From Candidatus Harpocratesius repetitus (GTDB lineage Archaea > Asgardarchaeota > Lokiarchaeia > Sigyniarchaeales > Promethearchaeaceae): 32,000 nucleotides of DNA. The position numbers were made by a program, and so were the translations under genes. Below the pieces are notes generated by a model. The model did not search any database and was not told where the DNA came from. It saw only the letters and a list, made by a program, of their open reading frames with translations. Shown piece after piece: positions 25,989 through 28,807 of this stretch (within the stretch, counting starts at the first letter, position 1; the number at the start of each line of letters is the position of its first letter). Location: positions 1,650,001 to 1,682,000 of the forward strand of contig JAIZWK010000001.1 of NCBI GenBank assembly GCA_021498095.1, given 5' to 3'.

Positions 25989-26450
25989 TTAGGAATATCG
26001 AGTGAAATAATTTTGAACTTTTTTGGTAATATAGGTGTTTCCTGAATTTTCCTGGCCAGAAAGAAAGATCTCACAAAATACTTTGCTTAAATGCTTTGTA
26101 ATACTTTCAATCCATGAAAAACGCTCATTTCTAGAGACATTCATTAGTTTTGGTATTGATACATGCTGAATTTTTCTGAATTTTTTAAACGCATATATTA
26201 AGATATAAAGTAATTCTTTTTGTGTACATGGAAAAAATGAATTAAAAAAAGTTCTTATTCTATGTATAATTGCAATTTCGGTCAAGGTTGGTGAAAAATT
26301 TTGAATTTCTGCTAAATATTGATAATAAATATCTCGATTTAAGCGAAAAATTTCTGGATCTATTGTACTTTTGTCTTTTTCCGGAGACATATTGCTTGAA
26401 TCAATCTGTTCTCTTTGTTCTTTTCCATCTTTTCGTTTGAATAGCGACAT
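25989..26450 (-). CDS. Hypothetical protein downstream of the ESCRT-III gene
   Basis: 153-aa ORF 60 bp downstream of and co-oriented with the Snf7-family gene. No recognised motif. Confidence 0.65.
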   Translation of the reverse strand: MSLFKRKDGKEQREQIDSSNMSPEKDKSTIDPEIFRLNRDIYYQYLAEIQNFSPTLTEIAIIHRIRTFFNSFFPCTQKELLYILIYAFKKFRKIQHVSIPKLMNVSRNERFSWIESITKHLSKVFCEIFLSGQENSGNTYITKKVQNYFTRYS

Positions 26451-26510: not shown

Positions 26511-27170
26511 TTAATCCCTTTGTTGCTTTAATTTTTTAATTTCTGCTTCTAAATCACTAATTTCTCCTTCAAATGATGCGCCACCAGGAACGGATGGGAG
26601 TGCTTCACGCGTGTTAATTGATAATTGTGCATCCACTTCAGCAAGAGCGTTGTCAACTTCTTCATCAGTTACTCCTGTGGCAGAACTGTCTTCAGAAAGC
26701 TCGAGTTGAGCGTTAACTTCTGAGAAAATTGCATCCATATTCCCAAAACCAAGATCTAATTGACTTAACATATTAGAAATTTCTGGAGCTTTTACGCTAA
26801 CTTGCAATTCTCCAAGTACTCCTGCAATGTCTTTTGCTACTCCAGTAAAATCACCAATCGCTTTCGCCTGTTCCAATTTAAATTGCACTCCATCTAATCT
26901 TACTCTAAAATTCTCGATAGAATGCACCCACTTTTGGAATTGAAGATGATTTTTCATGTGTAATCGGCTACCTGGGATATCACCCGCTTCTCTTCTTTGA
27001 ATCGCTTTCTTTTTTGCTAATTTTCCTTTTTGTTCCATTTTAACAACTTGTCGTTGGAGTCGTTTATTAAAAATCTTTAGACTGGTTATAGTTTTTCGAA
27101 GCGGATCTCCGTCATTCTTTTTTTTATAACCTCCTGAAAGCCAGGCGGTAAATTTTTTAAGACTTCCCAA
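26511..27170 (-). CDS. ESCRT-III / Snf7-family protein (CHMP1-3/Vps2-24-46-like), paralogue A
   Basis: TTG start; basic helical hairpin (GDIPGSRLHMKN), acidic C-half, helix-5 EEVDNALAEV, LPSVP, MIM1-like tail DLEAEIKKLK. Confidence 0.88.
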   Translation of the reverse strand: MGSLKKFTAWLSGGYKKKNDGDPLRKTITSLKIFNKRLQRQVVKMEQKGKLAKKKAIQRREAGDIPGSRLHMKNHLQFQKWVHSIENFRVRLDGVQFKLEQAKAIGDFTGVAKDIAGVLGELQVSVKAPEISNMLSQLDLGFGNMDAIFSEVNAQLELSEDSSATGVTDEEVDNALAEVDAQLSINTREALPSVPGGASFEGEISDLEAEIKKLKQQRD

Positions 27171-27342
27171 ACATTTTCACTTCCATTTCAAAAACATACA
27201 AAATAACTTATGGATTTTAATATTATCTAGAAGGTGAATTCCCTTAAAAAATCCTTAGGAGACCAATCAATGAAATTTTGAATAGAAGGAAACATTCTTT
27301 TTTCTTAAATTCATTAATAGGGTAATAGAGATACAAACGAAG

Positions 27343-28014
27343 GTGTCAACAATCGGATCTTTAAAAAAGTTAATAGACTGGTTAAATGGTGATGATAATA
27401 CTTCTTCTTCCACCGATCATACAGTTTCACCTCGAATTAAAATTAAAGTTTTTAATCGAAGGCTTGCACGAATGATTTCAAAAATGGAAATTCGTGAAGA
27501 GATGTATAAAAAGAAAGCAATGGAAGCAAGAAGAAATGGAGATCAAATAGGATCTCAGATGTATATGAAAAATTCATTACAATATCGAAAATGGGCTCTT
27601 GCAACAGAAAAATTCAAAATGCAGATTGAAGGTATTGAAATGAAATTGGATCAAGCAAAAATGGTTGCTGATTTCTCAGGTGTCGCAAAAGAGATTGTAG
27701 ATACTTTACATGGATTGCAACAACAAGTAAAAATGCCAGAAGTCAGTAAAATGTTAGCAAATTTAGATCTTGGGTTTGGAAAGGTTGATTCTATCCTTGC
27801 AGAAACATCATCTGAGTTGGAGCTTAGTGAAGATGCTTCTTCTACAGCTGTTTCAGAGGAAGAAGTAAATGAAGCTTTAGCTGAAGTGGATTTAAATTTA
27901 AGTGCTGAATCTTTGTCTACACTACCTGAAGTCCCTACCCTCGATGAATCCGAAGTAAACATTGAAGATCTTGAGAAAGAAATACATAAACTAAAAGAAA
28001 GGAATAAGATATAG
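27343..28014 (+). CDS. ESCRT-III / Snf7-family protein (CHMP1-3/Vps2-24-46-like), paralogue B
   Basis: GTG start; same architecture as paralogue A (GDQIGSQMYMKN, EEVNEALAEV, LPEVP, DLEKEIHKLK). About half of the core residues are identical to A. Confidence 0.88.
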   Translation: MSTIGSLKKLIDWLNGDDNTSSSTDHTVSPRIKIKVFNRRLARMISKMEIREEMYKKKAMEARRNGDQIGSQMYMKNSLQYRKWALATEKFKMQIEGIEMKLDQAKMVADFSGVAKEIVDTLHGLQQQVKMPEVSKMLANLDLGFGKVDSILAETSSELELSEDASSTAVSEEEVNEALAEVDLNLSAESLSTLPEVPTLDESEVNIEDLEKEIHKLKERNKI

Positions 28015-28306: not shown

Positions 28307-28807
28307 ATGGATTTAACAGAAACGTTTATTAGCATACGTGAGAGTAAAGGAGATTCAGTTGCCAAGCAATATTTAAATGATAAAAAATGTTCTCAATTAG
28401 ATTTACAGATTGAAAGCTTAAGTATGACACTGCAAATGGAATTTAACCGAATTCAAGGATCGAGTCTGCATCAACTACAAACTAATTCTGTGGGAAATCA
28501 GATTCGGGACATTATAGAAGATGGAATTAATGATATAATTAATGTTGTGAATAAGAATCCACGGGTTTTTAAAGCATATCTAAATTATTTGTACGATGAT
28601 ATTCAAACTCATTTTTCAGAAGATATTAATCAAGTTTTTTATGAAGTTCAACAACTTCATTTGACTTATAATTTTAATCAAATAGTTTGGAAAATCAAAG
28701 ATTTCGATTATCAAACAATTATCCGAATATTAAAATGTATGTTAATTGCAAATGTCTTGCGGCGATATAACCGTCGAAAATTTATTCCAGCAGGCTGTTA
28801 TACTTAA
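28307..28807 (+). CDS. Hypothetical helical protein
   Basis: 166-aa ORF with upstream GGTGA. No recognised motif. Confidence 0.7.
   Translation: MDLTETFISIRESKGDSVAKQYLNDKKCSQLDLQIESLSMTLQMEFNRIQGSSLHQLQTNSVGNQIRDIIEDGINDIINVVNKNPRVFKAYLNYLYDDIQTHFSEDINQVFYEVQQLHLTYNFNQIVWKIKDFDYQTIIRILKCMLIANVLRRYNRRKFIPAGCYT

Follow-up and report, generated by a model that had tools for sequence, protein, structure and literature searches.

A retained pair of ESCRT-IIIA paralogues in one Lokiarchaeal family, with a third paralogue in Candidatus Harpocratesius

Two paralogous ESCRT-III genes, A and B, stand head-to-head in the genome of Candidatus Harpocratesius repetitus (one contig of 4,361,485 bp) and are assigned by sequence to the A-type (CHMP1-3/Vps2/24/46, Asgard ESCRT-IIIA); they lie in the window analysed here, a stretch of 32,000 nt at genome positions 1,650,001-1,682,000. 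The pair is real and is kept by purifying selection in one Lokiarchaeal family that includes both cultured species, and phylogenetic analysis indicates that it arose by one duplication in the ancestor of four genera of that Lokiarchaeales family, namely this one (Harpocratesius), Promethearchaeum, Lokiarchaeum and one more. As a kind, such a paralogue pair is already on record for Promethearchaeum syntrophicum MK-D1, having been tabulated in 2020 and named in 2025, and the gain over that tabulation is incremental. New are a third A-type paralogue (C) in this genus, a probably ancestral layout in which the A-type gene is linked to vps4, and non-AUG start codons.

The initial annotation had described two Snf7-family genes transcribed divergently from a 172-bp spacer, starting at TTG and GTG and aligning to each other without gaps. 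The genes, their positions and orientation, the spacer and the TTG start of A were all borne out (Table 1), whereas the GTG start of B proved ambiguous. BLASTP aligned A and B over 217 positions with 102 identities (47%) and again no gap, at an E-value of 1e-71, far beyond chance, and both proteins exceed the gathering score of 27.3 for Pfam Snf7 (PF03357), A with 39.4 bits and B with 32.0 bits. TTG is the sole possible start of A, with an in-frame TGA two codons upstream. In B, the codon before the conserved Gly2 is ATC 27352, with GTG 27343 also possible; the spacer measures 181 bp if translation begins at the ATC. All three genomes of the genus have ATC at this codon, and one of them lacks a canonical start upstream. 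Across 40-odd orthologues, the codon immediately ahead of Gly2 is ATG, TTG, ATC or ATA, and a GGTG-type motif lies 5-8 nt ahead of the start position in most of them. Three sister-family genomes carry an ESCRT-IIIA gene that can start only at ATA; it lacks a canonical start and has TGA in frame two codons further up (L026:1495-2124, L028:1495-2124 and L030:575-1204, all minus). In two B orthologues ATC is the only possible start, no canonical codon being available in frame (L012:688-1344 and L043:1740-2387, both minus). These ATA- and ATC-start genes, each following a GGTG-type motif, suggest AUA/AUC initiation in Lokiarchaeales.

Table 1. Features of the A/B locus (window positions) and of other ESCRT genes discussed in the text (genome or locus positions as marked)
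Feature	Position	Strand	Details
Gene A, conservative ESCRT-IIIA (CHMP1-3/Vps2/24/46-like) copy	26511-27170	minus	219 aa, TTG start
Gene B, faster-evolving ESCRT-IIIA paralogue	27343-28014	plus	223 aa from GTG 27343 or 220 aa from ATC 27352
Divergent A/B intergenic spacer	27171-27342		172 bp; putatively holds both promoters
Conserved spacer block 1, candidate shared regulatory site	27231-27268		35/38 identical, G000 (this genome) vs G002
Conserved spacer block 2, AT-rich (TTCTTAAATTCATTAATA), candidate core promoter of B	27275-27319		43/45 aligned bases identical, G000 vs G002
Shine-Dalgarno-like GGAAGTGA, upstream of A's TTG start	27177-27184	minus	read from sequence
Shine-Dalgarno-like GAAGGTG	27339-27345	plus	6 nt before ATC 27352; contains B's GTG
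Gene C, third A-type paralogue	genome 4,310,671-4,311,369 (L004:1207-1908)	minus	233 aa, 32% identical to A
Gene D, sole Vps20/32/60-class (B-type) gene	genome 3,205,307-3,205,960		218 aa; 1.5 Mb from the pair
vps22 (EAP30), vps25, vps4	genome 1,845,821-1,848,757		about 168 kb from the A/B pair
Second EAP30 gene	genome 2.778 Mb		
Vps28-like gene	genome 1,316,657 (1.317 Mb)		
vps4-linked ESCRT-IIIA genes of the sister family (examples)	L033:1495-3562 and L023:1498-3502		

Over its whole length, the spacer shares 70% identity with its counterpart in the congeneric genome G002. The near-invariance of its two blocks (Table 1), set beside synonymous sites that are saturated in the flanking genes (pS about 0.75), argues for constraint on the spacer. 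Block 1 contains a TATA-like CTTAAAAAA at 27243-27251 and an imperfect dyad (TCCCTTAA / TTAGGAGA), and it is largely kept in the congeneric genome G001 as well. Judged from these patterns of conservation, the blocks may be promoter or regulator sites.

The initial assignment of both proteins to the CHMP1-3 class agrees with searches of the PDB. With A as a single phmmer query, CHMP1B (1.6e-6), Vps24 (3.5e-6), CdvB, CHMP1A and CHMP2A were matched, and no Snf7/CHMP4 chain. B alone gave weak matches only, to CdvB2, CdvB and CHMP3; a B-clade profile of ten orthologues reached CHMP1B at 3.6e-10, followed by Vps24, CHMP3, CdvB and CHMP2A, with the two solved Asgard Vps20/32/60-class chains at an E-value of only about 0.1 and no Snf7/CHMP4 chain. 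The class assignment is based on these profile matches and on published MK-D1 trees, which agree with each other, our own tree containing no eukaryotic sequences; searches of homologous proteins for eukaryotic CHMPs, by single protein and by a 22-sequence profile, returned Lokiarchaeal proteins only. AF2 models of A and B (pLDDT 78.8 and 71.4) have the same a0-a6 ESCRT-III helix layout (helices at residues 2-11, 23-61, 65-105, 109-125, 129-157, 169-187 and 201-218), in which the a1-a2 hairpin leads into a3, a4 and a5 and then into a C-terminal regulatory helix. All top Foldseek matches are ESCRT-III proteins (CdvB2, CdvB, CHMP1B, IST1 and CHMP3), with probability 1.0 and E-values from 2e-3 to 0.1, which are weak because the solved ESCRT-III structures are in differing open and closed states; IST1 surfaces in this fold search only, whereas CHMP1B, CHMP3 and CHMP2A match by sequence profile. 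Both proteins keep an amphipathic helix of the form MG(S)LKKxxxWL at the N-terminus and, at the C-terminus, a MIM1-like helix, DLExEIxKLK. Measured against canonical MIM1, (D/E)xxLxxRLxxL(K/R), this tail has the right Leu/Ile spacing in A, B, C and all single-copy orthologues, and the canonical Arg is replaced by Glu in all Lokiarchaeales A-type proteins; we assume that the A-type tails would bind Vps4.

The pair is not the genome's only ESCRT-III, in keeping with the initial view. A Pfam search and a permissive tblastn found four ESCRT-III genes in the genome, A, B, C and D. Gene C is situated 2.6 Mb from the pair and shares its N-terminal and C-terminal motifs, including the DLEKELARLRKKR tail, and differs by a divergent a5 region and a long acidic linker; an NCBI protein with 97% identity carries the label Ca. 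Harpocratesius sp. All three genomes of the genus share the order HD-domain gene, C, ROK kinase. Gene D matches the solved Loki Vps20/32/60-like chain 9fn1_U in the PDB at 1.6e-40, and also Snf7. That no Vps4 or ESCRT-I/II gene accompanies the pair was likewise upheld: profiles for Vps4_C, ESCRT-II/Vps25, EAP30 and Vps28 had no match within the 32,000-nt window, and the corresponding genes are distant (Table 1), the closest matches falling at genome positions 1,845,821-1,847,653 and 1,316,657. No Snf7 gene stands beside the vps4-vps25-vps22 cluster, and the placement of ESCRT-III next to vps4/vps25, a feature of the canonical Asgard cluster, is seen for none of the ESCRT-III genes here. The earlier idea of a separate two-subunit module, however, was overstated, given the third A-type paralogue and the single B-type subunit encoded elsewhere.

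A maximum-likelihood tree of 62 sequences (LG+C20+F+G4), rooted on the D clade, separates A-type from B-type proteins with support of 100/100. All A-type sequences from the four pair-bearing genera, C included, group together (99/96), with the single-copy Lokiarchaeales genes outside; inside this group, all four genera recur in both the B clade (99/92) and the A clade (96/70). AU tests, in which the groups were named after the tree had been seen, rejected two groupings that leave B out, one of the A clade with the sister family's single-copy genes (p 2e-7) and one of the A clade with the single-copy genus from its own family (p 2e-4). Gene C falls within the A clade, at the end of a very long branch, and AU tests do not reject its placement outside A+B (p 0.19) or with B (p 0.31). 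The A/B duplication is younger than the diversification of Lokiarchaeales and therefore cannot match the eukaryotic CHMP1/2/3 splits; as had been surmised, it is lineage-specific and parallels the eukaryotic expansion without being orthologous to it. Orthology of A and B to any particular eukaryotic subfamily (CHMP1, CHMP2 or CHMP3) was accordingly rejected, the two being each other's closest relatives in the tree and by the same AU tests.

The distribution of the pair was surveyed in 40 relatives of the same order. An adjacent A-type pair is present in this genome and in 11 of the 13 sampled genomes of its family, and a single copy in all 21 matching sister-family genomes and in one genus of the window's own family. 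The pair is divergent in this genus (three genomes, 156-188 bp apart), in the genus of Lokiarchaeum ossiferum (133-173 bp) and in Promethearchaeum (four genomes, the genus of syntrophicum MK-D1), where the paralogues are 2 kb apart and an M3 oligopeptidase gene sits between them on the strand of the B orthologue (L040:3650-5455, minus); in one further genus the pair is tandem on one strand. MK-D1 (G011) and L. ossiferum (G010) were recognised in the sample by exact protein-sequence match. Paralogue C is confined to the three genomes of this genus, a C query detecting no such paralogue in MK-D1, and D is single-copy everywhere and dispersed. In a phylum-wide sample of 161 Asgard genomes with a completeness of at least 85%, the A-type profile matched once in 120, twice in 23 (which were not classified further) and three times only in this genus.

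Sister-family genomes, as exemplified by L023 and L033, have their one A-type gene transcribed divergently from vps4 (MIT + AAA + Vps4_C), with 146-215 bp between the two. The published Lokiarchaeum GC14_75 cluster agrees with this vps4-linked layout of the A-type gene. Such an arrangement is probably ancestral and was lost in the window's family, where the gene would have left vps4 and its own paralogue now stands opposite A. A further A-type copy, in tandem with the first and containing an in-frame TAA, occurs in one sister-family genome (G166:C8:20284-22330); it may represent an independent duplication or a decaying copy. Another genus of the window's family possesses two tandem A-type genes of its own, both very divergent and long-branched (L034:1474-2704, genome G005), and the tree does not settle whether these come from the same or a separate duplication.

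In congeneric comparisons, synonymous divergence is saturated (pS about 0.75), and pN is low in A (0.036) and D (0.048) and higher in B (0.145) and C (0.149), with an overall range of 0.04-0.23 and values of up to 0.232 for B. Since pN is far below the saturated pS, all four genes are under purifying selection. The dN of B and C is about four times that of A and D, and A is 96% and 86% identical to its same-genus orthologues; A is the slow copy, closest to the single-copy orthologues. Eleven near-fixed differences distinguish the A and B clades, six of them at residues 27-39, the start of a1. The reading frame of B is intact in every sampled genome of the four genera, and the B-clade alignment retains 53 invariant columns.

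Reviews and structural papers describe Asgard ESCRT-III as a two-subunit system, and Makarova et al. mention only 'fewer paralogs' in Asgard archaea than in eukaryotes. Imachi et al. 2020 (PMC7015854 Suppl. Table 9) listed two Vps2/24/46-like ESCRT-III proteins in MK-D1, DSAG12_03711 and DSAG12_03713, together with one Vps20/32/60-like protein (RPKM 409), and Naripogu et al. 2025 (bioRxiv 10.1101/2025.11.01.685982) named the MK-D1 proteins CHMP1A, CHMP1B and CHMP4. Based on the tree clades, DSAG12_03711 and DSAG12_03713 (QEE17873 and QEE17875) are orthologues of B and A, respectively; they resemble A and B in class and length, and both genes are expressed in MK-D1, but the M3 peptidase gene separates the MK-D1 paralogues, whereas A and B are directly head-to-head. 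The names CHMP1A and CHMP1B point to orthology with the human paralogues, for which the tree gives no support. No paper found in our literature search dated the duplication, described the head-to-head layout or mentioned a third paralogue.

In the nomenclature of ESCRT-IIIA and ESCRT-IIIB (Heimdallarchaeota AB_125, PMC11804906; Loki CHMP1-3/CHMP4-7, PMC11791191), A, B and C belong to the IIIA class and D to the IIIB class. The expected order of assembly, with the B-type subunit recruiting the A-type, is the same as in the Asgard two-subunit system, but this genome has three A-type genes rather than one and no ESCRT-III gene beside vps4/vps25. CHMP2A-CHMP3 (PDB 7zcg) and CHMP1B-IST1 (PDB 6tz4) are likewise paralogous A-type subunits, sharing one polymer; the A/B duplication occurred independently of them, inside Lokiarchaeales. 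The CdvB, CdvB1 and CdvB2 proteins of Sulfolobus, which are among the top Foldseek matches, are another lineage-specific archaeal expansion of one ESCRT-III type, although neither CdvA nor a wH domain is present here; Asgard archaea retain FtsZ (PMC7619361). Current accounts use a minimal Asgard ESCRT-III of one A-type and one B-type subunit to infer the eukaryotic origin, and yet both of the cultured Lokiarchaeia amenable to imaging come from a family whose A-type subunits number two, or three in this genus. Given these extra A-type subunits in the cultured family, experiments and models should cover all paralogues. The duplication offers a natural, independent replay of the eukaryotic A-type expansion that can be tested in culture.

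The best explanation overall, and in our judgement a fairly probable one, is that A and B are in-paralogues that act in one composite polymer and whose expression is coordinated. D would nucleate on the membrane and then recruit the A-type subunits, as the B-type subunit does in vitro in other Asgard systems (PMC11804906); A and B would enter the same composite polymer, as a co-polymer or as successive layers, altering its curvature, and Vps4 would recycle both via the C-terminal helix. The shared spacer with its conserved blocks would give coordinated, roughly equal expression of A and B, and the MK-D1 orthologues DSAG12_03711 and DSAG12_03713 have RPKM values of 305 and 312 in one culture condition (PMC7015854 Suppl. 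Tables 3 and 9). A shared bidirectional promoter does not appear essential, as seen from the M3 insertion in Promethearchaeum and the tandem order in one genus. A complex prediction for A(1-190) with B(1-190) from clade alignments scored 0.21, below the mark, and speaks neither for nor against their association. Co-regulation and co-polymerisation of the two, both put forward in the initial annotation, are what we infer. It is unlikely, though far from negligible, that A and B are instead subfunctionalised isoforms that form no co-polymer, each paired with the B-type subunit for its own membrane process or condition, such as vesicle release, protrusion maintenance or division. A model for such a division of labour is provided by Sulfolobus CdvB1 and CdvB2, which have partly distinct roles. 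The roughly fourfold faster evolution of B, the concentration of fixed A/B differences at the membrane-facing start of a1, the broken adjacency in Promethearchaeum and the different operon context of C, beside a ROK kinase, all favour distinct isoforms, whereas the A/B adjacency kept across four genera, the near-equal RPKM of the MK-D1 orthologues in that one condition and the typical functioning of eukaryotic A-type paralogues in pairs (CHMP2A-CHMP3, CHMP1B-IST1) weigh against them. Nothing in the analysis separates co-assembly from the isoform reading. The further proposal of an obligate hetero-polymeric A-type pair formed by A and B, of an origin independent of CHMP2-CHMP3 and CHMP1B-IST1 and extended with C in this genus, is tentative and somewhat doubtful. 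If it is true, three or four subunits make up the ESCRT-III machine in the lineage containing every cultured Lokiarchaeon, rather than the two of the system taken as the pre-eukaryotic model, and multi-subunit A-type layering is convergent in archaea and eukaryotes.

Two other readings fare much worse. It is very improbable that B, as a duplicate in decay or a redundant one, lacks a function of its own: its lower Pfam score, its faster evolution and its uncertain start codon would fit such a fate, but its frame is intact in all sampled genomes of four genera, its pN (0.145-0.232) is far under the saturated pS, its clade retains the invariant columns mentioned above and its MK-D1 orthologue is expressed. 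B as a pseudogene was rejected on the invariant columns and purifying selection. Still harder to credit, to the point of being almost negligible, is that A and B constitute the ordinary Asgard two-class system, with one Vps2/24/46-like and one Vps20/32/60-like member. The top single-sequence PDB match of A is indeed the Heimdall 'ESCRT-IIIB' 9ftl (3.7e-8), ESCRT-IIIB being the CHMP4-7 class in the nomenclature of Souza et al., but this match is not diagnostic because D, the true B-type gene, matches 9ftl equally well (3.5e-8). The other matches of A (CHMP1B, Vps24, CHMP1A and CHMP2A) include no Snf7/CHMP4, the B-clade profile prefers CHMP1B (3.6e-10) to the B-type chains (about 0.1), A+B form one clade fully separated from the B-type clade, and the genome holds a distinct Vps20/32/60-class gene matching 9fn1_U. 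The match of D to 9ftl, the tree split and the B-clade profile refute this reading, and the pair is, as first proposed, not one of each known class.

Several open reading frames in and around the pair deserve mention. A 103-aa antisense ORF lies within B (window 27651-27962, minus), with similar antisense frames in orthologues, and is probably no gene but an effect of the Glu/Ser/Asp-rich coding strand. Downstream of A, at a distance of 60 bp, lies a 153-aa ORF (window 25989-26450, minus) that matches nothing in Pfam and is present once in the genome; it is absent at the same position in both congeneric genomes, where a methyltransferase gene directly follows A. Downstream of B, a 166-aa helical protein (window 28307-28807, plus), with no family match in Pfam and no usable match in the ESM Atlas, is kept beside B in the genus (75% identity) and is also encoded near B in L. 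ossiferum (42%).
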